In this document: in pieces, positions 1 to 16,358 of the stretch
Numbering within the stretch: the stretch's first letter is position 1
Layout: each line of letters starts with the position of its first letter
Source of the DNA: Halomicrobium mukohataei DSM 12286
GTDB taxonomy: Archaea > Halobacteriota > Halobacteria > Halobacteriales > Haloarculaceae
NCBI RefSeq assembly: GCF_000023965.1
Contig: NC_013202.1
Coordinates: forward strand, 2,940,001 to 2,972,000
Direction of reading: 5' to 3'
DNA: 32,000 bases
Notes under the pieces: model-generated
The model's input: the letters and a program-made list of their open reading frames with translations, nothing else
What the model was told of the DNA's origin: nothing
The model's database searches: none
Made by a program: the position numbers and the translations under genes

Positions 1-856
1 CGCGCGAGTCGGTCCCTGTGGCGACGGTGAGATCCCGTGCCGCCGTCCGTGCCGCCGCGACCGCGAGCGTGCGACGGCCCCGTGGATCGGCGTGGCCGAT
101 CGTCTCGCGCTGGAGGTCCAGCAGTGCCTCGTTGGTGACGACGCCCACGTGCTGGTTCGAGACGACGTTGCTGATCGGCACCTCGCCGTACTGGAGGTAG
201 CCTCGCGACCACGCCAGCGCGTACAGCTGAGTCGTCAGTCGCTGGCTCAATCCTCGCTCCGTCACGCCGGCGTCGAGTCGCCGCTGGTAGGTGCTGACTC
301 GATCGTGGGCCGCGAGCACCGGCGTCACGACGGTGACAGTCGGAGAGATCGTCGTCCGGGAGCGCACCTGCCCGCCACGGTGGGTACGGACCGTCACGTT
401 CTCGACGGTCACCCGGATCGCGGTGCCGTCGTCGTCTGCCCGCTGGATTGTCACGCGGTCGATGGCGGCGCGGCGCTTGGCCCGCGTCTCCGTCGAGGGC
501 AGCGAGACCGAGCCGGTGACCTCGCCACGACGGACCGCGACCCGAGAGAGGCGGTCGCGGGCCCGCAGGTAGATCCGGAGCCGGAGCGCGTCGCGAAACG
601 CCGTCTCTTCGTCGAGAAGGCGACCGGCGGCGGTGTCTGCCGGATCGACGACGGGGTCCGCTGCGGCCGCCCGGCTGGCGGTCGTCACGGCCTCGCGCAG
701 TTCCGTCTGTGCGGTCGCAGTCGTCCGTTCAGTGACCACCTCGGTCTCGCTGTCGGACGGAAGCGATCCCGGATCGATCGTCGTCGCCAGCGTCGCGCTG
801 CTGACGAGCAGGAGGACGCCGATCAGTGCGAACGGCACGCGGCCGCGATCGTCCAT
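1..856 (-). CDS. N-terminally membrane-anchored accessory/pilin-like protein of the pilus-like operon (5' end complete, 3' end runs off the left window edge)
   Basis: Absent from the ORF track because no stop lies in the window. I read the minus frame codon by codon from the ATG (cat 854-856) down to position 2 and found no stop. G/C dominates third positions. N-terminus is MDDRGRVPFALIGVLLLVSSATLATTIDPGS (charged head plus hydrophobic helix). The start shares base 856 with the upstream TGA (TGATG). Confidence 0.6.
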   Translation of the reverse strand, partial: MDDRGRVPFALIGVLLLVSSATLATTIDPGSLPSDSETEVVTERTTATAQTELREAVTTASRAAAADPVVDPADTAAGRLLDEETAFRDALRLRIYLRARDRLSRVAVRRGEVTGSVSLPSTETRAKRRAAIDRVTIQRADDDGTAIRVTVENVTVRTHRGGQVRSRTTISPTVTVVTPVLAAHDRVSTYQRRLDAGVTERGLSQRLTTQLYALAWSRGYLQYGEVPISNVVSNQHVGVVTNEALLDLQRETIGHADPRGRRTLAVAAARTAARDLTVATGTDSR

Positions 857-1734
857 CACGGCGACCACGTCCTGACGACGATTCGTACCTCGCCCGTCGA
901 GACGGCGCGGGCCGTGGCCGCCGGTGTCTCGAACCGGTCGCGCATGTCGGCGGCGAACCGGTCGGCCAGCGCAGCCGTGAGCCGGGCGTTCGTCGCTTCA
1001 ACGGAGCCGTTCTCCAGGTCCAGAGCCGGTGCGTCGGTGAGCCTGGCGACGCGGCGGTAGCGGTGGGCCGCCAGCGTGTCGGCCGGCGCGTCCCCACGGA
1101 GCGCGACGCGGCTCTCGGCGGGCGAGAAGAACCCCTCGACGACCGCCGCCGCGACCACGCGCGCAACGCCGTCCGTGCCGTCGGTCCGGGCAGCCTCGCG
1201 TGCGCGTTCGTTCGCTGGCTCGATGCCGCTGTCGACGGTGAGTCGAGCCGCACGCACGTCGGCCCTCGCGGGCGGCGTCGGTCCGGCGTGGATGCGACCG
1301 CCCAGGGGCGCACCGTCGTAGGGTTCCCAGACGGCCGTGACGCCGACGGCGGTCGCGCGACGGTGGACGGCAGCGCGGGTCTCGTTGCGAACCGCTCGCT
1401 CGAATCCGCCGCCGGCAGGGGCGATTCGCTCGCCGTCGAGCGTCGCGGCGGTCCGCGTGGCTGCCGCGAGGAGCCCGGCGACCGTCCCGTGTGCCGTCCG
1501 GTCGAAGTCGGCGCTGTGGCCGTAGCTGACTCCGTCGCTGTGGTTGTTTCGCGGCGTCAGTGCGTAGTCGACGCCGACGGTGGTGGTCGCCAGCGAGGTC
1601 GCCGTCTCGTCGGCGTGGTCGTCCCCCGAGGGCGGCGCGTCGAGACCACCTGTCCCGGCGACGAGCGTCCCGACGGCACCCCCGAGCAGGAGGAGGAACA
1701 GCGTCGTATCGACGACGGTACTGATCGCTCTCAT
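856..1734 (-). CDS. Membrane-anchored protein of unknown function in the pilus-like operon
   Basis: Track ORF 856..1848 trimmed to the ATG at 1734 (cat 1732-1734 verified). N-terminus MRAISTVVDTTLFLLLLGGAVGTLVAG is a hydrophobic anchor. ATGA start/stop overlap with the upstream gene at 1731-1734. I recognise no catalytic motif. Confidence 0.7.
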   Translation of the reverse strand: MRAISTVVDTTLFLLLLGGAVGTLVAGTGGLDAPPSGDDHADETATSLATTTVGVDYALTPRNNHSDGVSYGHSADFDRTAHGTVAGLLAAATRTAATLDGERIAPAGGGFERAVRNETRAAVHRRATAVGVTAVWEPYDGAPLGGRIHAGPTPPARADVRAARLTVDSGIEPANERAREAARTDGTDGVARVVAAAVVEGFFSPAESRVALRGDAPADTLAAHRYRRVARLTDAPALDLENGSVEATNARLTAALADRFAADMRDRFETPAATARAVSTGEVRIVVRTWSP

Positions 1735-2129
1735 CGCCACACCGCCACCCGGAGACGGGCCGCGTCGACGTGGGCCGGCCTCGTCCGGACGCTCACCCGC
1801 TCGCTCGCGGTCCCAGCGTCGTCTGGGGCGACCGGTCCCGCCTGCCACTGCCGGCCGTCGGCGGTCACGCTCACGTTCGTGTGATAGCCCGACGGACCCG
1901 CGTCGACGGCGTCGGAGACTCGTCGGGGCTCGACGACGCCAGCGGGCGCGAGGTGATCGTCGACCGCGGCAAGTGTCGTCTCGGGCAGTTCTCGCTCGCG
2001 TTCGCTCGGCAGTGCGTCGTCGAGGACGCCAGCGTAGAGCGACAGGGCGAGCGAGACCGCGGCGACCGCGACGAGGGCCACGAGGGGCTCGACCTGTCCC
2101 CTATCCGACGAGCGTGACACTGGTCTCAC
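1731..2129 (-). CDS. Putative type IV pilin-like protein with class III signal peptide
   Basis: N-terminus (V/M)RPVSRSSDRGQ|VEPLVALVAVAAVSLALSLYAG has a charged head, an RGQ prepilin-peptidase-type site and a hydrophobic helix. The start is GTG at 2129 (or GTG at 2120) and overlaps the upstream gene by 29 (or 20) nt. Confidence 0.7.
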   Translation of the reverse strand: MRPVSRSSDRGQVEPLVALVAVAAVSLALSLYAGVLDDALPSERERELPETTLAAVDDHLAPAGVVEPRRVSDAVDAGPSGYHTNVSVTADGRQWQAGPVAPDDAGTASERVSVRTRPAHVDAARLRVAVWR

Positions 2130-2565
2130 CCCACTGGACGCGTCGCACGTCGATCTCCGCCGGTGCCTGTCGCCACTCTCCTCGGACCTGGGCGTCCGCG
2201 ACCGCCTGCTCGAAGGCCGCGCTCGTCTCGAAGACGCTCGCTGGCGGCTGCCCGTAGAGGACGAGCGCGAGTTGATCGTCCGCCAGTGTGGGCGTCACGG
2301 GGCCGTACGCGAACGTCGCGCTCGCGGTCCCGCCGTCGTTGCGCAGCGAGAGCTGGCTGGGACCGAGCCGGATCGCCGCCGCGTCGATCTGGACCGTCGC
2401 TCTGGCGTCTGGCGGTCCGACGGCGACGCGATCGACGGCGTCGGCTGCTGTGGTCGCGTCGGGCGGTGCGGTCGTGGGGAGCGCGACGACGACGCCGAGC
2501 ACCGCGACGCTGACGGCCGCGACGCCGAGCCACGCGTACAGTGCGTCGACCGGGACCTCGAACAT
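2101..2565 (-). CDS. Membrane-anchored protein of unknown function in the pilus-like operon
   Basis: ATG at 2565 verified (cat 2563-2565). N-terminus is MFEVPVDALYAWLGVAAVSVAVLGVVVALPTT. It lies 34 nt downstream of the platform-protein stop. Confidence 0.7.
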   Translation of the reverse strand: MFEVPVDALYAWLGVAAVSVAVLGVVVALPTTAPPDATTAADAVDRVAVGPPDARATVQIDAAAIRLGPSQLSLRNDGGTASATFAYGPVTPTLADDQLALVLYGQPPASVFETSAAFEQAVADAQVRGEWRQAPAEIDVRRVQWGETSVTLVG

Positions 2566-2599
2566 GGCACGCCCTGGCCCCGCCTTCGGACTTAAACCC

Positions 2600-4294
2600 T
2601 CACACGAGCGAGGTCGCGCCGACGAACGCGGTGAGGTACGTCGCCGTCGCGGCCAGCAGCGCCAGGCCGACGCGATAGCCGACGAGCGACCGGTCGAGCC
2701 CGTCGGTCAGTCCGGTCGCCAGCGTCGTCAGGACGATCGCGAGCACGAGGACGTACCACCCGACTGCGAGGCCGAGATCGGCGGTCGCGACGCTCCCGCC
2801 GAGGGGACCGGCCGATCCCATCGCGGCCGACAGCGCGACCGTCGCACCGCCGACCAGTGGCGCGAACACGGCCGCCGTGTTCGAGAGCGTGTTCGTCACC
2901 TGTGCGACCGCACGGCGGTTCGCCTGCTCGGCCTCGTCGATCGTCTGGAGGTGATCGGCCATCGCCAGCAGGGCGTCCCCGGCGGGTCGCCCCTCCCGAG
3001 CCGAGAGGGCCAGTAGCGAGGCCGCGCTCTCGGCCCGTTCGCTCGGCACCGTCGCCAGCGCGCCGCGTTCACCGACGAACGCCGTCCGGAGGTCGACCCC
3101 GAGGCGACGCTGACGACCGGCCACCTCGGCCAGCACCGTCCCGGTCGCTCCCGGAACCGCCGTAGCGACGTCTTCGACGGCGCGCTCGGTCGCAGTCCCC
3201 CGTGTGACGCGCCGGCCGATCAGCGAGAGCGCGTCGGGGAGACCCGCTTCGACCGCCTCGACGGTCGACCGGACCGACTGCATCGGCTGGAAGGCGACCA
3301 CCAGCGCAGTCCCCAGCCCGGCCCCGGCCGCGGCGACGAATCCCATCCAGTCAGAGAGGACGAGACGGACCGACCAGCCGGCGAGGAGAGCGGCCGCGAT
3401 GCCGGCCACGGCGGCGTGAGTGGGACGAGACCACACGTCCGGATGGGATCGGCGTACCGGCGTCGGGCGGAACGCGACCGGCCGCTTCGTCAGCAGCCAG
3501 GCGCTGGCGAGGGTGACTGCGAGGGGCAAGAGCACGTCGTAGACGACCACGAGCAACGACAGCGGTGCCGGCACGCCGGCCGCGTCCAGGGCGGGCAAGA
3601 GCGCCACGAGTGCGAGGGGCAACAGGACGCCGAAGGCGTACAGCGCGGTCGCCGGCCCGCTGATCGAGGCCGCGAACGCGGCCGTCCGGTCGTGGATGCC
3701 GTCGAGGACCGTCGTCCGAGCGCGTTCGAGCGTCGCCCCGCGCTGCTGGGCCGGTTCCCGCCCGGCGCTCTCGACGAGCGAACACGCGCGTTCCAGTTCG
3801 GGCAACCACGGTCGCCACTCTCGCCCGAACGACTGGAGACCGGTGTTCGGCCCGTTCGCCGTCCGGCGGACGTGACTCGCCAGACTGTCGGCTAACGCTC
3901 CCGGAACGGACCGGGCACCGAACGCCGCGGCGGCCCCCGGTGCCGGCGTCAGGGACAGCCGCATGGTGAGCCGAGTCACGAGCGCCGGTGCGTCACCCAG
4001 CGCCTCCGCTCGCCGGACGCTGGCGAACGCGACGACGAGCTTCGACGTGGCGAGCACGATCGCGGCACAGACGAGACAGCACCCGGCGACGGCCAGCCCG
4101 ACACTGCCGCTCAGGACGGCCTGAACGAAGACGCCAGCCGTAGCCAGCGCGACGGTCGCCGCGTAGCTCGCCCCCACGACCATCTCGGCGTCGACGCCCC
4201 AGCCGAGGAAGGCGACCGCACGACGGAGGTCGGGGTCGGGTGACACGGAGAGAGGCCAGCACCGCGCGACGCCCCGGAGCAGCGCCCGCTTCAT
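2600..4294 (-). CDS. Polytopic platform protein, FlaJ/TadC/PilC-like (type II secretion system F family)
   Basis: The 564-aa product has two repeats of a soluble helical domain followed by hydrophobic segments (e.g. ALYAFGVLLPLALVALLPAL, AVGWYVLVLAIVLTTLATGL). Its ATG at 4294 overlaps the ATPase stop (ATGA, 4291-4294). Confidence 0.8.
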   Translation of the reverse strand: MKRALLRGVARCWPLSVSPDPDLRRAVAFLGWGVDAEMVVGASYAATVALATAGVFVQAVLSGSVGLAVAGCCLVCAAIVLATSKLVVAFASVRRAEALGDAPALVTRLTMRLSLTPAPGAAAAFGARSVPGALADSLASHVRRTANGPNTGLQSFGREWRPWLPELERACSLVESAGREPAQQRGATLERARTTVLDGIHDRTAAFAASISGPATALYAFGVLLPLALVALLPALDAAGVPAPLSLLVVVYDVLLPLAVTLASAWLLTKRPVAFRPTPVRRSHPDVWSRPTHAAVAGIAAALLAGWSVRLVLSDWMGFVAAAGAGLGTALVVAFQPMQSVRSTVEAVEAGLPDALSLIGRRVTRGTATERAVEDVATAVPGATGTVLAEVAGRQRRLGVDLRTAFVGERGALATVPSERAESAASLLALSAREGRPAGDALLAMADHLQTIDEAEQANRRAVAQVTNTLSNTAAVFAPLVGGATVALSAAMGSAGPLGGSVATADLGLAVGWYVLVLAIVLTTLATGLTDGLDRSLVGYRVGLALLAATATYLTAFVGATSLV

Positions 4295-6165
4295 GCCTCG
4301 ACCGTCCGGCCAGTTCTTCGTTCCCGGCGTCTGATCTCGTCCGTGCGCTCGGTCAGTCCCGCACGCACGTCGGCGTAGGATTCGTCGCTGTCGGCCAGCG
4401 CAGCGAGGAGTTCGCTGTTGCCCCGTTCCAGCCGATCGGTCGACTGCAAGCGTCCCTCCCGGAGCCGATACAGCGGCTCGAAGTCCACCGCGTCCCCAGC
4501 GGAGACGACCTCCTCGATCGCCGCGACGCGACGCGCCGGCCCGTCCTCGGTCTCGAAGCGCCCCATGGTGACGACGAGATCAGTCGTCGCGAACGACGAG
4601 GCGGGCACGTCGAGGTCGGCGACGACGCGTTCGCGCACGTCCTCGCCCCCGTCGCCGTGGATCGTCCCCAGAACGGCACTACCGCCGGCACCGACACGCA
4701 TCGCCTCGTAGAGGACCTGGGCCTCCTCGCCGCGGACTTCGCCGACCGCGAGCGCCCCCTCGCCGAGTCTGAGCGCCGTCCGCAGCGTCTCGTCGGCCGG
4801 CAGTCCGGGACCGTCGCCCCGCGCCGTCACCAGTGACTGGACCTCCCGTCCGTCGGCCTGGAGCTGTGCGACCGGCAGCTCCGGGGTGTCCTCGATGACC
4901 AGCGTTCGTACGCCGGGGTCGAGCTCCCACAGCAACGCGCCCAGCAGCGTCGTCTTGCCCGCTCCGCGGGGGCCGGCGACCAGCGTGGCAGCCGCACGGT
5001 CGACCGCCAGCGAGAGCAGTGCGGCGGCTGCCGGCGGGACGGTGTCGTTGTCGACGAGCTGTGGGAGCGTCCACACCGTCCGGTCGTGGGCTCGCAGCGC
5101 GAAGGCCGGGCCGTCACTGACCGGCGCTGTCGTCCCGGCGATCCTGACCCGCCGGTCGCCGACCGTCGTGGTGGCGTCAAGCGTCGGGCTGGCTCGCGAG
5201 AACGCCCGTCCGCTCTCGCGGCGGAACTGCGAGGCGAGTGCTTCGACGCCGCGCCGGCTCACCCGAACGTTCGTCGTCGCCAGTTCCCCGTCGACGCGTA
5301 CCCGAAGCGGGTTCGACGCGACCGGCGCGGTCGCGAACACGTCCGTCACGCGCGGGTCGTCGAAGCACTCGGCGAGGACGCCGTACCCGGCGGTGTGTCG
5401 GTCGAGCACGCGTCCGAGCCGTTCGACCGGATCGTCCTCGCAAGCGACGGTCCGGATCGCACGCCAGGCGGCACGCTCGCCGGTCACCGTCCCGTCGGCG
5501 ACGAGCTCCCGACCGCGTTCGAGCGTCGCCATCGCAGCGTCGTCCAGCGTAGCCCCGAGCGGTTCGAGGTGATACACCGGGAGGTCGTCGTCGCGTTCGT
5601 AGAGTCGCACGCGTCCGCCAGTCGAGAGCCGCCGGCTGTCGCGGAGCCGACCGTCGGCCGGCGGGTCGGCCCCGAGACGGGTGTGTCCGATGGTCGGGCC
5701 GACGTGCGGGGAGAGCGACGCGATCTCGCCGACTCGACGAGCACACAGCCCCAGGCCGGTCTCCGCTGCGATCGACGCGACTGGACCCGCGCGACCCACG
5801 GCCTCCCGGGCGGCGTCGATCGGATCGGTCACGGCCCGTTCGGCGAGGGCCTCGTCGTGGAACCGCGTCCGTTCGACGAACCGGCCGGCCGCACAGAGCA
5901 GGGCCGCGTGATCGTCGAGATAGGCCCGTTCGCGACCGTTCGACCGCGTCACCACGCGCTCGGCGTCGCGTTCGGCGAGCGCCTCGACGACCGTCCGGCG
6001 ACAGGCTGGCGACTCGGCCAGTCGACCGCCGTCTGGACAGTCCGTGGCGTCGACCAGCAGCGTCTCGCCGGTGTCGTTGCGTCCTCGTCGTACTGTACAT
6101 CCGCAGTCGGGGGCCGGCGTCGAACGGCTGAACCACCCTCGCATGGGCGGCGGTGGCCCCCTCAT
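4291..6165 (-). CDS. Type II/IV secretion-system ATPase (GspE/VirB11/FlaI/TadA superfamily)
   Basis: Walker A GPRGAGKTTLLGALL, Walker B-like RTLVIEDTPEL, and His-box-like LGTIHG. ATG at 6165 verified; an in-frame ATG at 6144 is an alternative start. The N-terminal ~230 aa extension carries four Cys. Confidence 0.9.
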   Translation of the reverse strand: MRGPPPPMRGWFSRSTPAPDCGCTVRRGRNDTGETLLVDATDCPDGGRLAESPACRRTVVEALAERDAERVVTRSNGRERAYLDDHAALLCAAGRFVERTRFHDEALAERAVTDPIDAAREAVGRAGPVASIAAETGLGLCARRVGEIASLSPHVGPTIGHTRLGADPPADGRLRDSRRLSTGGRVRLYERDDDLPVYHLEPLGATLDDAAMATLERGRELVADGTVTGERAAWRAIRTVACEDDPVERLGRVLDRHTAGYGVLAECFDDPRVTDVFATAPVASNPLRVRVDGELATTNVRVSRRGVEALASQFRRESGRAFSRASPTLDATTTVGDRRVRIAGTTAPVSDGPAFALRAHDRTVWTLPQLVDNDTVPPAAAALLSLAVDRAAATLVAGPRGAGKTTLLGALLWELDPGVRTLVIEDTPELPVAQLQADGREVQSLVTARGDGPGLPADETLRTALRLGEGALAVGEVRGEEAQVLYEAMRVGAGGSAVLGTIHGDGGEDVRERVVADLDVPASSFATTDLVVTMGRFETEDGPARRVAAIEEVVSAGDAVDFEPLYRLREGRLQSTDRLERGNSELLAALADSDESYADVRAGLTERTDEIRRRERRTGRTVEA

Positions 6166-6166
6166 C

Positions 6167-6622
6167 TCACTTCAACCGTCGGACGGTGAGCACCGGCGCA
6201 CCCGGCCGCCCGTCGAGCGAGAGGACGAGCCGGTGGCGACCGCCGCGTCGGAGCACGACGGGACCACCGTCGGGCGTTCTCAGCGGGACACCTGGGAGCT
6301 GTCGCGTTCGGGGCTGTCCGTCCGTGAGGAGCCAGGAGAGCCGTGCCGGGGCCTGGTCTGTCGGAGGGCGCAGAGAGACGCGCTCGACGCCGCCGCTGGT
6401 CCACGTCCGGGTCGGAACGCGGAGCGTCACGACGCGACGCGCACCCGGCCCGTCGAGCGGATCGTCCGTTTCGAGGAGCGTGTCGGCGACGCGTTCGATC
6501 TCGCTCGCCTGATCCGAGACCATCGCCGAGGTGCGCTGTCGACGCGCGTCGTCGATCGGGCCGAGCGTCGCGGCGACGAGCGCGGTCGCGAGCACGACTG
6601 CCAGCACGACGCGATAGATCAC
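6167..6622 (-). CDS. Small membrane-anchored protein of unknown function in the pilus-like operon
   Basis: GTG start at 6622 overlaps the upstream stop (GTGA, 6619-6622). N-terminus is (M/V)IYRVVLAVVLATALVAATLG. Its stop lies 1 nt before the ATPase ATG. Confidence 0.65.
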   Translation of the reverse strand: MIYRVVLAVVLATALVAATLGPIDDARRQRTSAMVSDQASEIERVADTLLETDDPLDGPGARRVVTLRVPTRTWTSGGVERVSLRPPTDQAPARLSWLLTDGQPRTRQLPGVPLRTPDGGPVVLRRGGRHRLVLSLDGRPGAPVLTVRRLK

Positions 6623-7224
6623 AGCCGCGACCGGAGTCGGGCGAGGACACCGCTCTCGTCTGCGCTGTCGCCGCCATCGACGCTGTCAGTGCCGTCGGGC
6701 CCAGCGGCCCCGTCGATCGGGCCGGCACCACGGTGGCCGTCGCCCGTCGCTCCGGAGACGGGCCGGTCGCTCCGGTCACGCCTCGGCGAGTGGGCCGATC
6801 GCTGTGTCCCGCTCGCTGTCCCCGTCGACACCGGTTCTCGGCGGTGGCCGTCCGGAGCGGCGTCGGTGGGATCGGTCGGCCGCGACGCGCTGTCTGATCG
6901 GCGATCGGCCGCGCCGTCGGCGAGTCGCTCTTCGAGTCGATCCACCGCGGCCACCGCGGCGTCGGCCCGTTGCTCGACGTCCTCGTTGACCGACCGGACG
7001 TTGCCCACGTAGCCACGGAGCGCCTGCGTCGCGGCTTCGAGCTCGTCGATCCGTCGCTGGGCACTGTCGAGTTGTTCCTCCAGTTCCTCGACCCGGCGGG
7101 CGAGATCGCCTCGTTGCTGGAGGGCGTCGAGATCGTGATCGTCGCCCGTCAGCGTCCGTTCGACCGCCCGCAGTCGCCGGTCCAGGCGTTCTCGGTCTGG
7201 CATGGCCGTCGGTGGTCCTGTCAT
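6619..7224 (-). CDS. Coiled-coil plus low-complexity protein, first gene of the pilus-like operon
   Basis: Heptad-like segment LDALQQRGDLARRVEELEEQLDSAQRRIDELEAATQALRGYV followed by a Pro/Asp/Gly/Ser/Arg-rich tail. The start is uncertain: ATG at 7224 (used here), ATG at 7203, or the track's TTG at 7251. Confidence 0.65.
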   Translation of the reverse strand: MTGPPTAMPDRERLDRRLRAVERTLTGDDHDLDALQQRGDLARRVEELEEQLDSAQRRIDELEAATQALRGYVGNVRSVNEDVEQRADAAVAAVDRLEERLADGAADRRSDSASRPTDPTDAAPDGHRREPVSTGTASGTQRSAHSPRRDRSDRPVSGATGDGHRGAGPIDGAAGPDGTDSVDGGDSADESGVLARLRSRL

Positions 7225-7283
7225 CGCATTTGAACCCTCGGAACGGGGCAACGTTGATTAGTCGCCCTGTTCAGTCCTACAGT

Positions 7284-8360
7284 ATGAAAGTCGTCCTGAT
7301 TGGTGTCGGTCAAGCCGGGGGGAAGATCACGCAGGCACTCGCAGAGTTCGACTACGACATGGGCTTCGACGCCGTCAAGGGGGCACTGGCGGTCAACACG
7401 GCCCGTCCGGATCTGAGCGAACTCGACATCGACACGCAGCTGATCGGCCAGGACAGGGTCAAGGGCCACGGCGTCGGCGGCGACAACGAACTCGGCGCGG
7501 AGATCATGCAAGAGAGCGCCACCGAGGTGATGGACAACCTCGACGGCCGACTCACCACCGAAGCCGAGGCGATCGTCGTGGTCGCCGGCCTCGGCGGCGG
7601 GACGGGATCTGGCGGCGCACCGATGCTCACGCGTGAACTCCAGCGCATCTACAACATCCCCGTCTACGTCCTCGGCGTCCTCCCCGGCAGAGACGAAGGC
7701 GGACTGTACCAGGCAAACGCCGGCCGCTCGGTCAAGACCTGCGCCCGTGAGGCCGACTCGCTCGTCCTCATCGACAACGACGGCTGGAAGGCTTCCGGAG
7801 ACAGCCTCGAAGCCGGCTTCGAACGCATCAACGACGCCATCGCCCAGCGGATCGGCCTCCTCTTTGCCTCCGGCGAGGCCGTCGAAGGCGTCGGCGAGAG
7901 CGTCGTCGACTCCTCGGAGATCATCAACACGCTCAAGGGTGGCGGCATCGCCTCCGTGGGCTACGCCGCCGCCGAATCGAGCGAAGACCCCGGCGAGAAC
8001 GTCAACACGATCACCAGTGTCACCCGCAACGCGCTCCTGACGAGCATGAGCCTCCCGGACGCGATCGACGCGGAGCGTGGCCTCCTCGTGATCGCCGGCC
8101 ATCCCGAGCGGATCTCGCGAAAGGGCGTCGAACGCGCCCGCAAGTGGATGGAAGAGGAGACCGGCAGCCTCGAAGTTCGTGGCGGCGACTTCCCCATCGA
8201 CAGCGGGAAGCTCGCCTCGCTGGTCGTCCTCGGCGGCGTCGAACGCTCCGAGCGCGTCCAGGAGTTCATGGATCGCGCACGCGAGGCCGAGCAAGAGAAG
8301 AACAAGGAGATCGATCCGATGGAGGGCCTCGAAAACGACGGGCTCGACGATCTGATGTAA
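7284..8360 (+). CDS. cetZ: CetZ-type tubulin/FtsZ-superfamily protein
   Basis: MKVVLIGVGQAGGKI N-terminus, tubulin signature GLGGGTGSGGAP, and an acidic C-terminal tail. ATG at 7284 verified; the track start at 7212 is upstream and non-homologous. Confidence 0.9.
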   Translation: MKVVLIGVGQAGGKITQALAEFDYDMGFDAVKGALAVNTARPDLSELDIDTQLIGQDRVKGHGVGGDNELGAEIMQESATEVMDNLDGRLTTEAEAIVVVAGLGGGTGSGGAPMLTRELQRIYNIPVYVLGVLPGRDEGGLYQANAGRSVKTCAREADSLVLIDNDGWKASGDSLEAGFERINDAIAQRIGLLFASGEAVEGVGESVVDSSEIINTLKGGGIASVGYAAAESSEDPGENVNTITSVTRNALLTSMSLPDAIDAERGLLVIAGHPERISRKGVERARKWMEEETGSLEVRGGDFPIDSGKLASLVVLGGVERSERVQEFMDRAREAEQEKNKEIDPMEGLENDGLDDLM

Positions 8361-8362
8361 GA

Positions 8363-8440
8363 CCATCTTTTTCCCGCTCGGGTTCGAGTCGCGCCTCCGG
8401 CGCGCTCGAACCACTCACGGCAAAAACATGGGTGAAAAAG
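8363..8440. repeat. Palindromic T-run-flanked intergenic element, copy 1
   Basis: Sequence ccatctttttcccgctcgggttcgagtcgcgcctccggcgcgctcgaaccactcacggcaaaaacatgggtgaaaaag. The central hairpin at 8381-8412 has 8+6 bp. It starts 2 nt after the cetZ stop. It aligns by hand with 30016-30081 and 30908-30975. Confidence 0.8.
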
Positions 8441-8647
8441 GCTCGCTCTCACTGCGTTCGAGCGAGTGAACCGGCCGACCTGCCGGGTCCTGACGGACCG
8501 CTCGGTCGCCCGGATGCTTCCGGTGATCAGTACAGGGAATAGGAACAACACATCGGTAAGAAATTGTTGAATTCGCACGCGGATTGAACATCCGGTTCGC
8601 CCGAGAGGCGCTGCGAAGCAATTCACGCAGAGACGGAAACGGGCGTC

Positions 8648-9991
8648 TCAGACCAGACTGGAGCCGTCGAACTCCGTCCTGTCGAAGTCCACGTCCATCA
8701 GGTCCAGAATCGTCGGCGCGATGTCGTAGAGGTCGGCGTCGCTGATCCGGGCGTCCGGGTCGTCGACGAACAGCGTCGCGTTGTCGAAGCTGTGCATGCC
8801 GTTGCGCGGGCCGACGCCGAAGACGTCGTCCGAGCCCTTGAAACCGGCCTTGAGGTCGAAGCCGTGGTTCGGGACGACAGTCAGGTCGGGCGCGATCTCG
8901 TCGTGGTCGCCGCGGTAGGCCTGTTCCTTGGTGACGACGCGGTCCGCGACGGGGTTGCCGTCGGGACCGGTCAGGTTCTCCAGCTTCTCCCGGAGCTCGT
9001 CGCGGACGGCCTCGTACTCGTCTTCGGGCACGGAGCCACGCGGCTCGCGGCCTTCGAGGTTGATGTAGAAGCGACCGGGGATCAGGGAGTACGCCTTCGT
9101 CGACTCGTCGATGTCGCCGAGCGTCTCGTGGTCGTCGTCCTCGTAGGTGAGCCACCCCTCCTCCTGGAGCCACTCGTTGAGGTGGACCTCGTAGTCGAGA
9201 CTGGTGAAGCCGTGGTCGGAGGCGACGACCATCGTGACGTTGTCGGCCAGCAGGTCACGGAGCCGTCCCAGGTAGTCGTCGACCTTGCGGTAGAACTCCA
9301 GGAACTCCTCTTTGTACTCGCCGTCCTCCTCGTAGTGTTTGAACAGGAAGTGGTTCACCCGGTCGGTGGTCATGAAGACGCCGAAAAAGAGGTCCCAGTC
9401 GTCCTGTTCGATGTAGTGTTTGAACGCTTCGAAGCGCCGGTCCAGAGTCTTGTGTGCGTCTTCGATGAACTCCTCTTTGTCCTCGCTGTGGCCGAGCTTG
9501 GCGTTGACGTCGATGCGGTAGTCGTTGTCGTCGAGGTAGTCTCCGAGTTCGTCGGGATAGGCGGCGTCGTCGACGCCCGGCGAGAGGAATCCGGAGACCA
9601 TCCGCTGGACGTTGCGCTGGGGCGGGAACGTGACGGGGACGTTCAGCACCGTCGCGTCGCCGCCGTCGTCTGCGACGCGGTCCCACAGGCGTGTTGCCTG
9701 CACGTCGCGGCCCATCGGAACGTAGGTGTCGTAGGAGCCGATCTCGCGGTCCTGAAAGCCGTAGACGCCGGTCTCTCCGGGGTTGACGCCGGTCGTCAGC
9801 GCCGGCCAGCACGCGCTGGACTCCGGTGGAACGATGCTGTCGATCGGTCCGGCGGTGCCGTCCTCGGCGATCGCCGCGAGGTTCTCGAACTCGTCGTAGT
9901 GGTCCGCGATCAAACTGTGCGGTACCCCGTCGACGCCGAAGAAGGCGACTCGGGGTCCGTCGTCGCCGCGAATACGGTCGAACAGGCCCAT
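8648..9991 (-). CDS. Alkaline-phosphatase-superfamily phosphodiesterase/nucleotide pyrophosphatase-like protein
   Basis: Motifs FFGVDGVPHSL, PPESSACWPALTTG and MVVASDHGF are typical of the type I phosphodiesterase/NPP family. ATG at 9991 verified; the track start at 10018 is TTG. Confidence 0.8.
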   Translation of the reverse strand: MGLFDRIRGDDGPRVAFFGVDGVPHSLIADHYDEFENLAAIAEDGTAGPIDSIVPPESSACWPALTTGVNPGETGVYGFQDREIGSYDTYVPMGRDVQATRLWDRVADDGGDATVLNVPVTFPPQRNVQRMVSGFLSPGVDDAAYPDELGDYLDDNDYRIDVNAKLGHSEDKEEFIEDAHKTLDRRFEAFKHYIEQDDWDLFFGVFMTTDRVNHFLFKHYEEDGEYKEEFLEFYRKVDDYLGRLRDLLADNVTMVVASDHGFTSLDYEVHLNEWLQEEGWLTYEDDDHETLGDIDESTKAYSLIPGRFYINLEGREPRGSVPEDEYEAVRDELREKLENLTGPDGNPVADRVVTKEQAYRGDHDEIAPDLTVVPNHGFDLKAGFKGSDDVFGVGPRNGMHSFDNATLFVDDPDARISDADLYDIAPTILDLMDVDFDRTEFDGSSLV

Positions 9992-10067
9992 GTCACCTCG
10001 TTCATCGTTCGGGGACAAGAAGCTTCTTTTCGCGGCCGAGTCGGGTGTGCGTCACCGGAACCGGCAA

Positions 10068-10220
10068 TCACTGCTCGGGCTCGGCGGGGTCGTCGTCGGC
10101 CGACGAGGAGTCGTCGCGATCGAAGTTCGCCGGAACGACCGTCAGGTGGTTCATACCGACTGTCTGTTTCGTAGCCATCACGGGAGACAGTTCACCCTCG
10201 AAGGTCAAGTAATTACCCAT
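10068..10220 (-). CDS. Possible small acidic protein (50 aa; 36 aa if it starts at ATG 10178)
   Basis: MGNYLTFEGELSPVMATKQTVGMNHLTVVPANFDRDDSSSADDDPAEPEQ. G/C-rich third positions in the distal half. An AT-rich patch (gattaattatgatta) lies just upstream. No homology recognised. Confidence 0.3.
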   Translation of the reverse strand: MGNYLTFEGELSPVMATKQTVGMNHLTVVPANFDRDDSSSADDDPAEPEQ

Positions 10221-10362
10221 AATCATAATTAATCGGCAAGACGGACCGCCATTACTCCGGAACATGCAAGCGCCGTGTCTGTTCGATTCCCGCAGCGATG
10301 GCTGGGTGGACGGATCGTACCACCTCGCAAAAATAGCGGAGTCGAACAGCGACGCGGCTCGC

Positions 10363-10899
10363 TTACGCGATCTGCTCGTCGTACAGCTCCTGGGCGTGTT
10401 CGATCGCGTCGTAGGCGGCCTGCTTGTCCTCCCAGCCCAGCGTCTCGACTTCCTTGCCGGCCTCGAGGTTCTTGTAGGTCGCGAAGAACTCGTCGATCTC
10501 GTCGAGTTGCTGCTGTGGGATGTCGTCGAGGTCCTCGATGTGGTCGTAGCGCGGATCCTCGCTCGGGACGGCGATGACCTTGTCGTCTTGCTCGCCGTCG
10601 TCGTCCATCTTCATCAGAGCGACCGGACGCGCCTCGATGATACAGCCGGGGAACGTCTGGTCCTCGACGAGGACGAGCACGTCGAAGGGATCCTCGTCGT
10701 CGTAGTACGACTGCGGGATGAAGCCGTAGTCCGACGGGTAGTGGACGTTGCTGTGGAGCACGCGATCGAGGACGACGCCGGGAACGTCCTTGTCGTACTC
10801 GTACTTGTTGCGCTCGCCTTTCAGGCACTCGACGACCGCGTAGATCTCTTCTGGCGGGTTCGGACCGGTTTCGAGGTCTTCCCAGAGGTTCGTCATCAT
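10363..10899 (-). CDS. ppa: Inorganic pyrophosphatase, family I
   Basis: NLWEDLETGP, ECLKGERNKYEYDK and DEDPFDVLVL motifs. ATG at 10899 or 10896 (tandem Met, verified). About 177 aa, as expected for family I. Confidence 0.93.
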   Translation of the reverse strand: MMTNLWEDLETGPNPPEEIYAVVECLKGERNKYEYDKDVPGVVLDRVLHSNVHYPSDYGFIPQSYYDDEDPFDVLVLVEDQTFPGCIIEARPVALMKMDDDGEQDDKVIAVPSEDPRYDHIEDLDDIPQQQLDEIDEFFATYKNLEAGKEVETLGWEDKQAAYDAIEHAQELYDEQIA

Positions 10900-11107
10900 C
10901 GGCGACTCCGACGGGCGTCCAAAAAGTACTTTCGTAATCAACTACGACTACCGAGAGGAAGCGCAAGACGACGGGTATTTCCCCGCCGGTGATATTCGCT
11001 GGTGATAACAACACCCGTTATTTGGAATATTTTCGATACACTGACGCAGCGACCACGACGGCGCAGTCTCTCGGTAACGCGCCGACCTGCGAGCGAGTTA
11101 ACAAGTG

Positions 11108-11114
11108 TTAAATA
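11108..11114 (+). promoter_or_regulatory. TATA-like box (ttaaata) for the PadR-family gene
   Basis: Centred ~26 nt upstream of ATG 11137, in an AT-richer divergent spacer shared with ppa. Confidence 0.4.
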
Positions 11115-11136
11115 GCTTGATGACATTCAGCTAACC

Positions 11137-11496
11137 ATGTCAGAGGCACAAACCAAAACTGACACACCCGGTATCGCAAGTGAATTGACGGCGTTCCAGC
11201 AGAACATCCTCGTCATCCTCTCCGAAGAGCCACGCTACGGGCTGGCCATCAAGCGAGAGCTGGAGAGCTACTACGACGACGAAGTCAATCACGGGCGTCT
11301 GTACCCGAACCTCGACGACCTCGTCGAACTCGGCCTCGTCGAGAAGAGCGAACTCGACAAGCGAACGAACCAGTACGGACTGACCGAAGCGGGGAAGGAA
11401 GCTGTGCTCGACCAGCTTTCGTGGGTCTTCGGGAAGTTCGTCACCGAGGAATCGCGCGCCGAAGAACTCCGGGACCTCGTCCAGCAGCACGAGTAA
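11137..11496 (+). CDS. PadR-family winged-helix transcriptional regulator
   Basis: YGLAIKRELE...HGRLYPNLDDLVELGLVEK...DKRTNQYGLTEAGKE matches the PadR wHTH pattern. ATG verified. Confidence 0.85.
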   Translation: MSEAQTKTDTPGIASELTAFQQNILVILSEEPRYGLAIKRELESYYDDEVNHGRLYPNLDDLVELGLVEKSELDKRTNQYGLTEAGKEAVLDQLSWVFGKFVTEESRAEELRDLVQQHE

Positions 11497-11507
11497 GAAA
11501 CACGATC

Positions 11508-11524
11508 CCCCGAGTCACTCGGGG
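11508..11524. terminator. Perfect 7-bp hairpin at a convergent gene junction
   Basis: ccccgag-tca-ctcgggg. The loop tca is the stop codon of the minus-strand gene. It lies 12 nt after the PadR stop. Its functional role in archaeal termination is unproven. Confidence 0.25.
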
Positions 11525-12111
11525 TGATCGCTGCCGAGTGGGTACGGCACGTCCATTTTTTCGAAGGTGCGACGAAGTGACTCGTTCAACAGCGACGCCT
11601 GCCGGTCGTCGGGCCAGACGTTGCGCTCGAAGTAGTCGTCCCGAAACTCGACGAGCTCTGCCCGCGTGAGGTCCTCGATCGGTTTCGCGTAGTGGTTGCT
11701 CGCGAAGTCCGCCAGCGCGCGGGCGTTCGCTGCGTGGACCTCGCCGTCGGCGTCGGCGACCGCTGCGACGAGTTCGTCGTTGTGTTCGGCTACGACCGCC
11801 CAGTCGCTCCCCTCGCCGGGACCGGACAGCGGCCGTTCGATTCCACGGTCCACGTCGTCGATCCGGTCCGGATGGATCCGTCCGTCGGAGGCCCACTCGC
11901 GCGGGTGACAGACGAGCACGTCCCTGGCGTCGTCTTCGCGGACCCGAGCGGTGTACTCGTGCTCGGCGAGCAGTTCGTCGCGCTCGTCGCGGTAAGCCCG
12001 CGCTTCCGCGTCGTCGACGGCGTCTCTGGCCAGTCGGGTGAGTCGCTCGGCCTCGTCGACCACGTCGGTCGGCAACGCCGAATCCGTCGTCGAGTCGTCG
12101 TGTTCAGGCAT
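11515..12111 (-). CDS. Conserved acidic hypothetical protein co-transcribed with RNase HI
   Basis: ATG at 12111 verified; it overlaps the rnhA stop (12104-12106) by 8 nt. The product is acidic and 198 aa. I recognise no catalytic motif. Confidence 0.75.
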   Translation of the reverse strand: MPEHDDSTTDSALPTDVVDEAERLTRLARDAVDDAEARAYRDERDELLAEHEYTARVREDDARDVLVCHPREWASDGRIHPDRIDDVDRGIERPLSGPGEGSDWAVVAEHNDELVAAVADADGEVHAANARALADFASNHYAKPIEDLTRAELVEFRDDYFERNVWPDDRQASLLNESLRRTFEKMDVPYPLGSDHPE

Positions 12112-12697
12112 CGTCGAGTGCCTCGTTGGCCAGTTCGTCTGCGCGTGCGTTAATCTCTCTCGGTACGTGTTCGATCGACCACTCCTCGAAGGCCATCAGT
12201 CCCTCGCGGGCGTCGACGCGGTGCTCTCGGAGTTCGGGATCGTTCGTGTTCCACTCCCCGCGGACCTGCTTGACGATCAACTCGGAGTCGCCCCGGAGGC
12301 GGATCTCGTCGAACCCGTGATCGCGTGCGACTTCGAGCACGCGAAGCAGCGCCCGGTACTCGGCCTGGTTGTTCGTCGCGGTGCCGATCCGCTCGCCGCC
12401 GTCAGCGACGATTCCGTCGTCGGTCACGAGCACCCAGCCGACCGCGGCGGGGCCGGGATTCCCGCGCGAGGCCCCGTCGAAGTACGCGTGGACCCGCCCG
12501 CCGTGTTCGCGAAGGAGCCCCTCCAGCCGGGCCGTGTCGCCGCCCTGGACGACGACTTTCCCCTCGTAGGCGACCGCCGTCCCACCACCGTGGCTCGCCC
12601 GCCACTCCTCGTGGTCGGTGTTGCCCGCCTCGACGGTGACGCCCGCCGCTTCGAGGCGTTCGCGAGCCCTCGTCTCGTCGCACTCGATCGTCGGCAT
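12104..12697 (-). CDS. rnhA: Ribonuclease HI (type 1) with an N-terminal extension
   Basis: DEDD pattern YFDGASRGNPGPAAVGW, TNNQAEYRALL, LRGDSELIVKQ and INARADELAN. ATG at 12697 verified; the track start at 12841 adds an Arg-rich non-coding-looking leader. Confidence 0.9.
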   Translation of the reverse strand: MPTIECDETRARERLEAAGVTVEAGNTDHEEWRASHGGGTAVAYEGKVVVQGGDTARLEGLLREHGGRVHAYFDGASRGNPGPAAVGWVLVTDDGIVADGGERIGTATNNQAEYRALLRVLEVARDHGFDEIRLRGDSELIVKQVRGEWNTNDPELREHRVDAREGLMAFEEWSIEHVPREINARADELANEALDDA

Positions 12698-12868
12698 CGT
12701 CTCGTTGATCACCGACGGATCGATAAAACGCTTCCCTCTCCGAGACCGGCGGCGGGTCACGGCACACGTGTGCCGCGTCGTGCGGCGGGACACGCCGCGG
12801 CGACGCCCAACCGCCGGCTGGCGAGAGTCCAGAACCACCAAGTATGGTGGTGGTCGTACAGGCTACCG

Positions 12869-13345
12869 ATGGCACTTTCCGAGGAGGCTCGCGACCGGCT
12901 CGCCGACATCGTCGAGCTCCAGCCCACGAAAAACGCGGATCTACAGGATCGGTGGGGGATGGACAGCGGGAGCGAGGTCCACCAGTACCTCGAAAACGAG
13001 CTCAAGGAGTACTACTACCGCGACGAGAGCAGCCTCATCTGTGCCACGCCGGAGGCCGTCGAGGTCGTCGGCGGCGATCCGGCAGACGGCCAGCAGGTGA
13101 CGGTCACGGAGCTACAGCAGGCGGTGATCGACTGTCTGGCCGGCCCGGACGAGGAGAGCCAGAGCGTCGTCTCGGTCCTCCACGACCTGCGCGAGGCGGG
13201 CCACGACCCCGAGGTGGACGACGTTCGATCCGCGCTGCGGTCGCTCGCGGACAAGGGGATCGTCGAAACCGTCCAGAAGACCGTCCCGACTTTCCGGCTG
13301 GCCGTCGAACACGAGCGGATCGACGTGGCACAGCTCGACGACTGA
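12869..13345 (+). CDS. Small acidic protein with winged-helix-like modules (haloarchaeal conserved unknown)
   Basis: In-frame ATG at 12869 verified. MALSEEARDRLADIVELQPTKNADLQDRWG... and ...VRSALRSLADKGIVETVQK resemble wHTH recognition helix plus wing. The upstream part of the track ORF is the antisense of rnhA. Confidence 0.75.
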   Translation: MALSEEARDRLADIVELQPTKNADLQDRWGMDSGSEVHQYLENELKEYYYRDESSLICATPEAVEVVGGDPADGQQVTVTELQQAVIDCLAGPDEESQSVVSVLHDLREAGHDPEVDDVRSALRSLADKGIVETVQKTVPTFRLAVEHERIDVAQLDD

Positions 13346-13346
13346 T

Positions 13347-14414
13347 TCACCCGGTCCCGTCGTCGAGGCCGGGTCTGTGACGCCGTCGCTGGTCGTCGAG
13401 CAGGCGTCTGATCCCCGCGCCGGGTCCGCCGTCGATGGGCCACCCGCCGGTTCGCCAGGCCGGTGGTTCGGGCTCGCACTCGCGACAGCCCGAACGACAC
13501 GTCGACGGCGTCGGCACTCGTTCCTTCGCTTCGCAGTACGGTACGACGCTGTCGCCCTCGGTCCGGAGCTGGAAGTGCCGACAGTCCGGGCGCAGCGAGT
13601 CCGCGTAGGCCCGCCAGCCCCGTTCGTAGGCGCGTTCCGCGATCGAACGCCGCTTCTCGGCCTTCCACTCGGGATCGACGTACTCGAAGCGCGCGGCGCT
13701 CAGGTCGTCGTCGGGTCGCTCCACGATGCGCGTGCCCGGCTCCGAGACCGCGAGAGACTGGGGGTACCACGCCACGTCGGCCTCGACCGTCGACGGATCG
13801 ACCGTCAGGACGCCGGCCGCCGCGGGCAGATCCTCCAGCAGGATCGGTTCGATTCGCTCGTCGGTCCGCTCGGTCGCGACCCACACCTCGTCGGCCAGCC
13901 CCAGCGCCACGTCCCGTTCGAGCTGGGGCGCGAGCCTGCGGGCAGCACTCGCGTCCAGATCGGGCTTGTTCTCGATGGCGACGATCCGCTCGATCCAGTC
14001 GGGGTAGGCGTGCCGCCGTCGAATCTCGATCCGGTTGCCCCGCTTGCGCCGGTCCAGAACGCCGCGGTCGGCGGCCGTGTGGATCGCCTCGCGGACGTAC
14101 CGCCAGGGGTAGCCGGGGTCGGGCAGCGCGTCCCGGTAGTACGCCCACTCGGTGGGCGCGTGTCCGAGGACGTGACGGAGGTCCGAATCGAGTCGCTGGC
14201 GGCCGAAGTTCGCTCGCTGGCGGAGTCCCGCGGGATCGCACTCGACGACGATCGTGTCCCAGCGGCGTCGCTTCGTGCCCAGTTGCCGAGCGACGAGAAC
14301 GGGGCTGTCGCGGTCGCCGTCTGGCGGCCACGCTCGCTCGGCCCACTGGCAGACGTGCAGTTCGAAGGCGAACTCGGAATTGGCCACGGCCAGACGTGGC
14401 TCCCCAGCCAGCAT
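13347..14414 (-). CDS. Conserved hypothetical protein with a PD-(D/E)xK-like motif, wHTH-like insert and C-terminal Cys cluster
   Basis: ATG at 14414 verified. Motifs are EFAFELHVCQW, RRWDTIVVE, IVAIENKPD (ExK after a beta-strand-like stretch), and C-terminal CRHF..YCEAK..TCRSGCRECEP. Confidence 0.75.
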   Translation of the reverse strand: MLAGEPRLAVANSEFAFELHVCQWAERAWPPDGDRDSPVLVARQLGTKRRRWDTIVVECDPAGLRQRANFGRQRLDSDLRHVLGHAPTEWAYYRDALPDPGYPWRYVREAIHTAADRGVLDRRKRGNRIEIRRRHAYPDWIERIVAIENKPDLDASAARRLAPQLERDVALGLADEVWVATERTDERIEPILLEDLPAAAGVLTVDPSTVEADVAWYPQSLAVSEPGTRIVERPDDDLSAARFEYVDPEWKAEKRRSIAERAYERGWRAYADSLRPDCRHFQLRTEGDSVVPYCEAKERVPTPSTCRSGCRECEPEPPAWRTGGWPIDGGPGAGIRRLLDDQRRRHRPGLDDGTG

Positions 14415-14486
14415 AAGTGACTCGCTGGTAGAATGGCCTGGCCGGTTCGGCCCACTGCACGAATCTGACGGGTATAGATCACGAAG

Positions 14487-14492
14487 ATTTAT
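14487..14492 (+). promoter_or_regulatory. TATA-like box (atttat) for the RDD gene
   Basis: Centred ~29 nt upstream of ATG 14519. Confidence 0.4.
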
Positions 14493-14518
14493 CCTGCGAT
14501 AGGCTGCACCCAAAGTGT

Positions 14519-14971: not shown

Positions 14972-14984
14972 CCGCCAGACCGAA

Positions 14985-16332: not shown

Positions 16333-16358
16333 TGTGAGTAGAAAATCGTTCACAACAC

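Follow-up and report, generated by a model that had tools for sequence, protein, structure and literature searches.

Positions 1-7224 of a 32,000-nucleotide (nt) stretch of the Halomicrobium mukohataei DSM 12286 chromosome (NC_013202.1, positions 2,940,001 to 2,972,000; this whole stretch is referred to as the window) hold what is quite probably the Halomicrobium version of an archaeal type IV filament system, halobacterial subclade 4F, arranged back-to-back with the tubulin-like gene cetZ2. Subclade 4F is the system known as pil-2 in Halobacterium (Hbt.) salinarum and as pilB2/pilC2 in Haloferax (Hfx.) volcanii. Both the system and its arrangement with cetZ2 have already been published more than once, and the window adds no discovery of the locus; the only possibly new detail is a promoter-like motif that occurs three times in the cluster. 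The 4F system is widespread and strongly conserved in haloarchaea, and its pairing with CetZ2 is a rare genomic hint, already in the literature, of a link between the archaeal cytoskeleton and a surface machine. The practical additions of our analysis are corrected start codons, three likely substrates of the prepilin peptidase PibD and a shared promoter-like element that would split the cluster into three units and could help to identify the regulator and the other members of its regulon.

The locus was delimited by reading the open reading frames (ORFs) of the window. Eight consecutive minus-strand genes (G1 to G8) fill positions 1-7224 and cetZ lies on the plus strand at 7284-8360, as a preliminary description of this DNA had stated. 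Window positions 1-16622 are 100% identical to the Halomicrobium chromosome CP045142.1, in which the full-length DUF7286 protein (G8) has 1039 amino acids (aa). None of the eight ORFs is disrupted in this genome. The features are as follows:

1 to 856, minus strand: G8, first 285 codons of the gene for the DUF7286 protein, cut by the window edge
856 to 1734, minus strand: G7, DUF7284 protein, 292 aa
1731 to 2129, minus strand: G6, DUF7285 protein, 129-132 aa (GTG start at 2120 or 2129)
2101 to 2565, minus strand: G5, DUF7283 protein, 154 aa
2566 to 2599, minus strand: P3, promoter-like motif in the 34-nt gap between the PilC gene and G5
2600 to 4294, minus strand: G4 (pilC2), polytopic membrane protein of 564 aa, PilC/TadC/FlaJ-like platform
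4291 to 6144, minus strand: G3 (pilB2), secretion ATPase, 617 aa from the likely start ATG 6144 (624 aa from ATG 6165)
6145 to 6178, minus strand: P2, promoter-like motif preceding the ATPase ATG 6144
6167 to 6622, minus strand: G2, DUF7311 protein, 151 aa
6619 to 7203, minus strand: G1, DUF7310 coiled-coil protein, 194 aa from the likely start ATG 7203 (201 aa from ATG 7224)
7204 to 7237, minus strand: P1, promoter-like motif preceding the G1 ATG 7203
7250 to 7283, plus strand: putative cetZ2 core promoter, AACGTT at 7250-7255 and TATA-like TTGATTA at 7254-7260, in leaderless geometry
7284 to 8360, plus strand: cetZ2, tubulin-like CetZ protein, 358 aa

Two start codons have been revised. G1 likely begins at ATG 7203, 21 nt downstream of ATG 7224, and the ATPase gene at ATG 6144, 21 nt downstream of ATG 6165, because the orthologue consensus (for the ATPase N-terminus), the database calls (194 aa and 617 aa) and the positions of the promoter-like motifs agree. 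The ATPase, earlier given as 624 aa, would thus measure 617 aa, and the spacer to cetZ, earlier put at about 60 nt, is 80 nt when counted from the G1 ATG to the cetZ2 ATG. The junctions listed in the preliminary description can be read in the sequence (TGATG at 856, ATGA at 1731-1734, an overlap of 20-29 nt at 2101-2129, a 34-nt gap at 2566-2599, ATGA at 4291-4294 and GTGA at 6619-6622) with one exception: the 1-nt gap placed at 6166 becomes a gap of 22 nt between G2 and the revised ATPase start, with a TATA box overlapping the G2 stop codon. G8 has an alternative GTG start at 868, and the database gene call for G6 is 129 aa.

The identification starts from published gene content. Among archaeal type IV pilus systems, Makarova 2016 (PMC4858521) distinguished subclade 4F, found mainly in Halobacteria. 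Its ATPase has an additional cysteine-rich domain at the N-terminus, a cytoplasmic coiled-coil protein (arCOG07564) is peculiar to it, and its pilins are of the euryarchaeal type; a surface-layer (S-layer)-like protein is frequent, and an FtsZ-family gene (arCOG02202, CetZ) lies nearby. In the window, genes for DUF7283, DUF7285, DUF7284 and the 1039-aa DUF7286 protein follow PilC, and three of the four products have class III-like signals. By its position and description, DUF7310 appears to be arCOG07564, and synteny with Haloferax and Halobacterium loci assigned in the literature would place the ATPase in clade 4F (arCOG01818). Adjacency to cetZ2 has been reported in PMC4858521, in Brown & Duggin 2023 (PMC9856176) and in bioRxiv 10.64898/2026.04.22.720090. 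Brown & Duggin identified the neighbour specifically as cetZ2 and found 12 of 22 cetZ2 regions to be pili-associated, in Haloferacales and Halobacteriales and not in Natrialbales; Figure 6B of that paper includes Halomicrobium mukohataei. The preliminary description had presented an apparatus with uncharacterised components, to be regarded as an ordinary pil operon should its ATPase fall within a clade already characterised and its small proteins match defined pilin families. With the ATPase apparently in subclade 4F and the cetZ2 link in print, that novelty is lost. Losensky 2015 (PMC4292770) had described pil-2 of Hbt. salinarum as OE1347R-OE1332R, a haloarchaea-restricted cluster of seven ORFs co-transcribed from pilB2, with three prepilins predicted by FlaFind. 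In that organism pilB2 was 8.5-fold upregulated in adherent cells, at a low expression level (PMC4292770).

Conservation of the locus was assessed in 80 loci with relatives of the ATPase, which a scan of one genome per species had yielded from Haloarculaceae, Haloferacaceae, Halobacteriaceae and Natrialbaceae, and the orthologues were laid out by tblastn with all nine window proteins. The order G1-G2-ATPase-PilC-DUF7283-DUF7285-DUF7284-DUF7286 is kept in most of the 80 loci, with the DUF7310 gene upstream of the ATPase gene in about 70 of them. A divergent cetZ gene lies at most 3 kb upstream of the ATPase gene in 35 of the 72 loci with enough flanking sequence and is absent from the other 37, so that the cetZ adjacency noted in the preliminary description is a conserved one. 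The cetZ-linked loci come from Haloferacaceae, Halobacteriaceae and Haloarculaceae, together with one Natrialbaceae locus. They occupy most branches of a neighbour-joining tree of the ATPase (Haloferax, Halobacterium, Haloplanus, Halorubrum, Halosimplex, Halorientalis, Haloarchaeobius, Halorussus, Salinibaculum and the one from Natrialbaceae), and cetZ is absent at the loci of Haloarcula, Halovenus, Natronomonas and most Natrialbaceae. This spread over the tree indicates that the link is old and has been repeatedly lost, in agreement with the literature. The same cetZ-pil arrangement is seen in two Haloferax loci (L043, L048), and three Halobacterium loci (L071, L074, L080) have the same order and the cetZ neighbour. 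The spacer between the G1 and cetZ start codons is also constrained, being mostly 74-80 nt; in 37 loci the common values are 74-79 nt, with a median of 79.

The window CetZ protein matches Pfam CetZ_C (E 3e-66) and Tubulin (E 1e-30). Its best match in the PDB is 4b45, at 479 bits over the full length, versus 334 bits for 4b46. Duggin 2015 reportedly described these entries as H. volcanii CetZ2 and CetZ1, respectively, and the window protein is accordingly of the CetZ2 type. One locus, that of Halorussus ruber (L004, 14740-16300), has a different gene order: the pilin genes precede PilC and G1 comes after it, and the divergent G1-cetZ pair is kept. This hints that the DUF7310 coiled-coil gene, and not the ATPase gene, is what stays as the partner of cetZ2. 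In H. volcanii, deletion of cetZ2 gave no phenotype under standard conditions, and its overexpression mildly raised motility and the number of surface filaments (PMC13644373). A functional link between CetZ2 and the pilus machine, in which CetZ2 might for example position the machine, is a published hypothesis.

The ATPase and platform protein form the core of the machine, and the earlier reading of a type IV pilus/Tad-like apparatus built around them was right. The ATPase matches Pfam T2SSE (E 1e-16); its Walker A motif, Asp box/Walker B motif and His box, all noted previously, are invariant in 14 of 14 aligned sequences. The same holds for four N-terminal cysteines (C21, C23, C43 and C55) upstream of the ATPase core. 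Against the NCBIfam equivalogs the protein scored far below the cut-off of every model. A TadA/CpaF ATPase (TIGR03819) was rejected at 114 bits against a cut-off of 373, with Flp and TadZ genes not found in the Pfam scan; an archaellum FlaI/ArlI ATPase (NF058587) at 90.4 bits against 550, with no archaellin or arlCDEFGHJ genes in the window; and the bindosome ATPase BasE at 63 bits against 1000 (E 2e-17). A profile of the ATPase and 13 orthologues found afGspE (2oap, 2e-33) as its best match in the PDB, followed by CpaF (2e-25) and, more weakly, FlaI (7e-20) and VirB11 (5e-12).

The product of pilC2 has about nine hydrophobic peaks, and its gene always comes after the ATPase gene in the 80 loci; this polytopic topology and invariable position lead us to read it as the platform protein. 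The preliminary description had called it a duplicated PilC/FlaJ-type platform. The platform reading stands, although its Pfam T2SSF match reaches just 16.7 bits (E 0.0075) against a cut-off of 25.2 and covers residues 366-481, in the C-terminal half only. An internal duplication is weakly supported by alignment of the two halves with hhalign (E 0.022, probability 2%, 162 colinear columns). A PDB sequence search with PilC2 returned zero matches.

All window products were scanned against Pfam, and every small partner fell into a defined family, where previously most were said to show no recognisable motif. G1 belongs to DUF7310, annotated as a coiled-coil region (E 4e-31), and has a low-complexity acidic tail and a cytoplasmic character. 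G2 belongs to DUF7311 (E 3e-41) and is 100% identical to the database entry 'MULTISPECIES: DUF7311 family protein [Halomicrobium]'. G5, G6 and G7 belong to DUF7283 (E 6e-52), DUF7285 (E 1e-35) and DUF7284 (E 2e-91), and the visible part of G8 matches positions 1-285 of the 1000 in the DUF7286 profile (E 7e-118). A literature search by the names DUF7283-7286, DUF7310 and DUF7311 returned zero papers.

Alignment of N-termini revealed that DUF7285, DUF7284 and DUF7286 carry a class III-like start of the form [KR][GA] plus a hydrophobic stretch, kept in 45-60 orthologues. The window DUF7285 protein begins with the classic prepilin-like SSDRG/QVEPLVALVAV, and about 58 orthologues give the consensus S-x-R-[GA]/Q-[VT]-E-P before the hydrophobic stretch. 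DUF7284 begins with MRA/ISTVVDTTLFLLLLGG (MRA/ISTV; consensus R-[AG]/[VI]-S-T-V-x-D, then hydrophobic) and DUF7286 with MDDRG/RVPFALIGVLLLV (DRG/RVPFAL; consensus D-x-R-[GA]/R-[VI]-P-F-A-L, then hydrophobic). Searching all six frames of the window for ORFs that have [KR][GA] and a hydrophobic stretch close to their start gave just these three operon genes and three unrelated ORFs. DUF7285, DUF7284 and DUF7286 are therefore likely to be three PibD substrates, and their number agrees with the three FlaFind-predicted prepilins of Hbt. salinarum pil-2. The preliminary description had credited a single partner, DUF7285, with a prepilin motif and had called the subunits mostly non-canonical, which the three signals, the family assignments and the pilin-like layout of DUF7311 reveal as an overstatement.

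No class III signal was found in the aligned orthologue N-termini of DUF7311 and DUF7283. The former opens directly with M-[IL]-R and a hydrophobic helix (MIYRVVLAVVL in the window), the latter with an acidic MF[DE]xPxDxWYxW segment followed by one transmembrane helix. In an AlphaFold2 (AF2) model of DUF7311 (predicted local distance difference test, pLDDT, 83), a 51-residue N-terminal helix (residues 2-52) precedes a seven-strand beta domain, a modelled layout that is pilin-like. The AF2 model of DUF7283 (pLDDT 86) comprises a transmembrane helix and a compact alpha/beta domain. The globular domain of DUF7283 (residues ~30-154) has a pLDDT above 90 and yet finds no Foldseek match in the PDB (best E 0.36), and as modelled it may represent an undescribed or poorly represented fold. 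The Foldseek comparisons gave no grounds for calling DUF7311 a pilin or DUF7283 a relative of FlaF/FlaG or PilN/O.

The eight genes had been described as a single coupled unit. This is probably wrong, as three conserved promoter-like motifs divide the cluster. The motif is clearest in the 34-nt gap before G5, which reads GGGTTTAAGT-CCGAAGG-CGGGGCCA-GGGCGTGCC-ATG, with TTTAAGT at -31..-25 and CGGGGCCA at -17..-10 from the ATG. Upstream of G5 in 63 loci, T at -30 occurs in 62, T at -29 in 59 and A at -27 in 59, and GA at about -21/-20 and C-S-G-S-G-N-C-M-A at -17..-9 are also conserved. In sequence terms the spacing is that of a leaderless promoter in haloarchaea (TATA centred at about -27/-28), with an extra element between the TATA box and the start. 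The consensus is TATA-N-GA-N3-CGGGRCCA-N9-ATG, with TATA at -31..-25 and CGGGRCCA at -17..-10.

A position weight matrix (PWM) trained only on the G5 upstream regions was applied with a threshold of at least 12 bits within 60 nt of a start. It recovered 59 of 71 G1 starts and 55 of 78 ATPase starts, and none of 320 starts of G2, G4, G6, G7, G8 and cetZ; scores above 14 bits occurred at about 0.01% of 3.04 million scanned positions. For the -23..-8 part of the matrix, the median was 8.3 at G1 and 8.0 at the ATPase gene, against -5.1 at cetZ and -11.6 at random positions, a comparison that is supportive and not independent since the G1 and ATPase sites were pre-selected on total PWM score. In the window the three sites score 23.6 bits (P3), 17.9 bits (P1: TTCAAAT at 7234-7228, CAGGACCA at -17..-10 from ATG 7203) and 13.2 bits (P2: TTGAAGT at 6175-6169, overlapping the G2 stop codon, and GGGGGCCA at -17..-10 from ATG 6144), and they predict the ATG starts 7203, 6144 and 2565.

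That the conserved TATA and GGGRCCA motif precedes G1, the ATPase gene and the DUF7283 gene at a constant distance suggests a division of the cluster into three leaderless units (G1-G2, G3-G4 and G5-G8), with translational coupling inside each. With the same TATA + GGGRCCA architecture in front of them, the units are probably co-regulated. The pil-2 transcript start reported by Losensky at pilB2 fits the second promoter, P2, and the read-through into the pilin genes in the same study is compatible with the third, P3. On the other strand, in 17 of 41 loci the cetZ2 promoter has AACGTT at precisely -34 relative to the ATG, with one-base variants at the same position in others. Together with the TATA-like TTGATTA this implies a leaderless cetZ2 mRNA. 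A motif common to the cetZ2 and pil promoters was considered and rejected, as the GGGRCCA element was not found at the cetZ2 sites (0 of 40 at or above 12 bits, median sub-score -5.1). The cetZ2 gene thus appears to have its own, different leaderless promoter, back-to-back with that of G1.

The remaining strong PWM hits in the 80 loci are either G1, ATPase or G5 calls with misplaced starts or system-associated genes of the cetZ-less, Natrialbaceae-type clade. In eight loci of that clade (L029, L033, L039, L040, L042, L046, L062 and L063) a pilin-like gene (…DDRAIEGLPIRLVIALVVGVAAL…), at about 7300-7770 on the minus strand, stands divergent to G1 and is preceded by the same element. The element also precedes a MinD-like ATPase gene (L039, L046) and a conserved 'MV.VE.D..RR..VTFV' gene (L033, L039, L062). 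By this shared motif, these genes may be extra members of the regulon or the missing major pilin. We tentatively propose, at slightly less than even confidence, that the TATA + GGGRCCA element could mark the operators/promoters at which a dedicated regulator turns on the entire 4F system. Were this true, a genome-wide scan for the element would bring to light the missing major pilin and the conditions under which the system is expressed, and the element together with the fixed 74-80 nt spacing would offer a direct handle on co-control of CetZ2 and the machine. No mention of the motif was found in the literature on the system, in a search that was not exhaustive.

Several observations weigh against reading the locus as a 4F filament system divided into three units. 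The PilC assignment is sub-threshold, with no pair of above-threshold T2SSF domains in G4, and Foldseek searches of the PDB gave no significant match for the DUF7311 model (best E 0.15) and no fold match for that of DUF7283. Neither a major PilA-type pilin nor PibD is encoded in the window; the Pfam scan of its roughly 29 ORFs found no prepilin peptidase, archaellin, FlaF/G/H, che or PilA-type pilin gene, most of which had already been described as missing. In Hfx. volcanii visible pili come from pilB3C3 only (bioRxiv 10.64898/2026.04.22.720090), and no filament or phenotype has been reported for a 4F system in any organism. The promoter motifs are predictions from sequence only, and reverse transcription PCR in Hbt. 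salinarum detected read-through from pilB2 into the pilin genes (PMC4292770), so that G5-G8 need not be an independent unit.

Some of these points are shared by another explanation, which we consider unlikely, namely that the cluster encodes an assembly or secretion device of the pseudopilus type, in which the ATPase, platform and minor-pilin-like subunits make up a short piston or anchor. This would export the 1039-aa DUF7286 protein and install it in the S-layer or envelope, with CetZ2 and DUF7310 positioning the machine. Such a device would resemble the Sulfolobus bindosome or the bacterial type II secretion system. It would account for the missing major pilin gene in operon and window and for the absence of Hfx. 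volcanii pili attributable to the pilB2/pilC2 locus, and the conservation of two uncleaved membrane-anchored subunits (DUF7311 and DUF7283) and the match to the bindosome ATPase model, weak and below cut-off as it is, also speak for it. DUF7286 is the largest conserved cargo-like gene, published as S-layer-like (PMC4858521) or adhesin-like (bioRxiv 10.64898/2026.04.22.720090). However, DUF7286 has a pilin-type, class III-like signal, which argues for a subunit and not a free secreted cargo. Makarova 2016 ties PilA-family pilins (arCOG02981/arCOG10216) to 4F loci (PMC4858521), and the pilin-like gene divergent to G1 in the cetZ-less clade bears the same promoter motif. A full-length DUF7286 search against PDB sequences returned zero matches.

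Base composition bears on a further alternative. The operon (1-7224) has a guanine-plus-cytosine (GC) content of 72-74%, versus 60-68% elsewhere (8600-32000). In three operon ORFs the GC content of third codon positions (GC3) is 0.82-0.83, within the 0.80-0.89 of the neighbours, and that of second positions (GC2) is 0.56-0.60 versus 0.27-0.50; first positions (GC1) are likewise raised. The excess therefore reflects amino-acid composition, the proteins being rich in Ala, Arg, Gly, Pro and Thr, and not foreign origin, and a foreign island was rejected on this ground. It is very improbable that the cluster lacks a current function, being either a relic that is decaying or silent or an island that moves laterally, and that its adjacency to cetZ2 is merely an inherited insertion site. 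The high GC content could be taken that way, as could the absence of cetZ at 37 of 72 loci. Hbt. salinarum R1 has an in-frame stop in pilC2, and pilB2 is interrupted in NRC-1 (PMC4292770), which also tells against the reading as a 4F filament system. Brown & Duggin note that the operon is distributed as a mobile element might be and that it interrupts the usual neighbourhood of cetZ2 (PMC9856176). In the identical genome, DUF7286 is followed by genes for a DUF5791 protein (142 aa) and a NAD epimerase (297 aa; L081, 18908-20233 for both) and then by a DHH-family gene. A DUF5791-type and NAD epimerase pair adjoins cetZ2 even where the pilus cluster is missing (PMC9856176), so its position beyond the operon here marks the pil cluster as an insertion between cetZ2 and its usual neighbours. 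Against decay, the eight ORFs are intact here, the codon-position pattern is that of the neighbouring genes at GC3, and G1 and cetZ remain together in the rearranged Halorussus ruber locus. Gene order, signals and the three promoter motifs are kept over four families whose proteins are just 30-60% identical, and this conservation implies purifying selection.

The rest of the window consists of housekeeping and conserved haloarchaeal genes, including those for a phosphodiesterase, inorganic pyrophosphatase, DUF7108, an RNase H-like protein, DUF5787, an aldo-keto reductase, a glycosidase, DUF7121 and a 2-oxoacid:ferredoxin oxidoreductase. Among them are unrelated genes of unknown function at 11515-12841 and 13347-14534 (minus strand) and 21488-22378 (plus strand): DUF7108 beside an RNase H/RVT_3-like gene, DUF5787 (E 7e-120) and DUF7121 (E 1e-137).

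Read as a 4F filament system, the locus would work by analogy with type IV pili. PibD, encoded elsewhere, would cleave the class III-like signals of DUF7285, DUF7284 and the 1039-aa DUF7286 protein. A PilB2 hexamer acting on the PilC2-like platform would then pull the hydrophobic N-terminal helices out of the membrane to build a short pilus or a priming (tip) complex, so that DUF7286 would be displayed on the cell surface, probably for adhesion. DUF7311 and DUF7283 may serve as uncleaved membrane-anchored accessory subunits and DUF7310 as a coiled-coil protein that partners the ATPase in the cytoplasm. If the system uses a PilA-type major pilin, its gene would lie outside the window.

Compared with known systems, the locus shares the ATPase superfamily and, as predicted, class III signal peptide substrates with the archaellum (ArlI/FlaI, ArlJ), and differs in that no archaellin or ArlF/G/H/C/D/E genes were found in the window. 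With bacterial Tad/Flp systems (CpaF/TadA, TadB/C) and afGspE it shares a homologous ATPase core and the combination of ATPase, platform and small N-helix pilins; unlike Tad/Flp it has no Flp-type pilin, secretin or TadZ/CpaE, and its accessory proteins are haloarchaea-specific. Hbt. salinarum pil-2 has pilB2, pilC2 and downstream genes with three predicted prepilins in common with it, although pilC2 of strain R1 has its in-frame stop and the genes here are intact; synteny in other Halobacterium species indicates orthology with R1 pil-2. The Hfx. volcanii pilB2/pilC2 regulon (PMC9856176) shares the divergent cetZ2 and the flanking DUF5791-type and NAD epimerase genes, a pair also seen in L001 and apparently equivalent to the arCOG04674-like and arCOG03095 neighbours; the three promoter-like motifs, signal-peptide conservation and start-codon corrections given here are not in that paper. 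The nearest likeness is to subclade 4F as described, with which the locus shares an ATPase with a cysteine-rich N-domain, a TadC/PilC-like platform, a coiled-coil protein, pilin-like genes, a large S-layer/adhesin-like protein and a CetZ gene; apart from the PilA-type major pilin proposed by Makarova, which does not lie in the window, nothing substantive sets the two apart.

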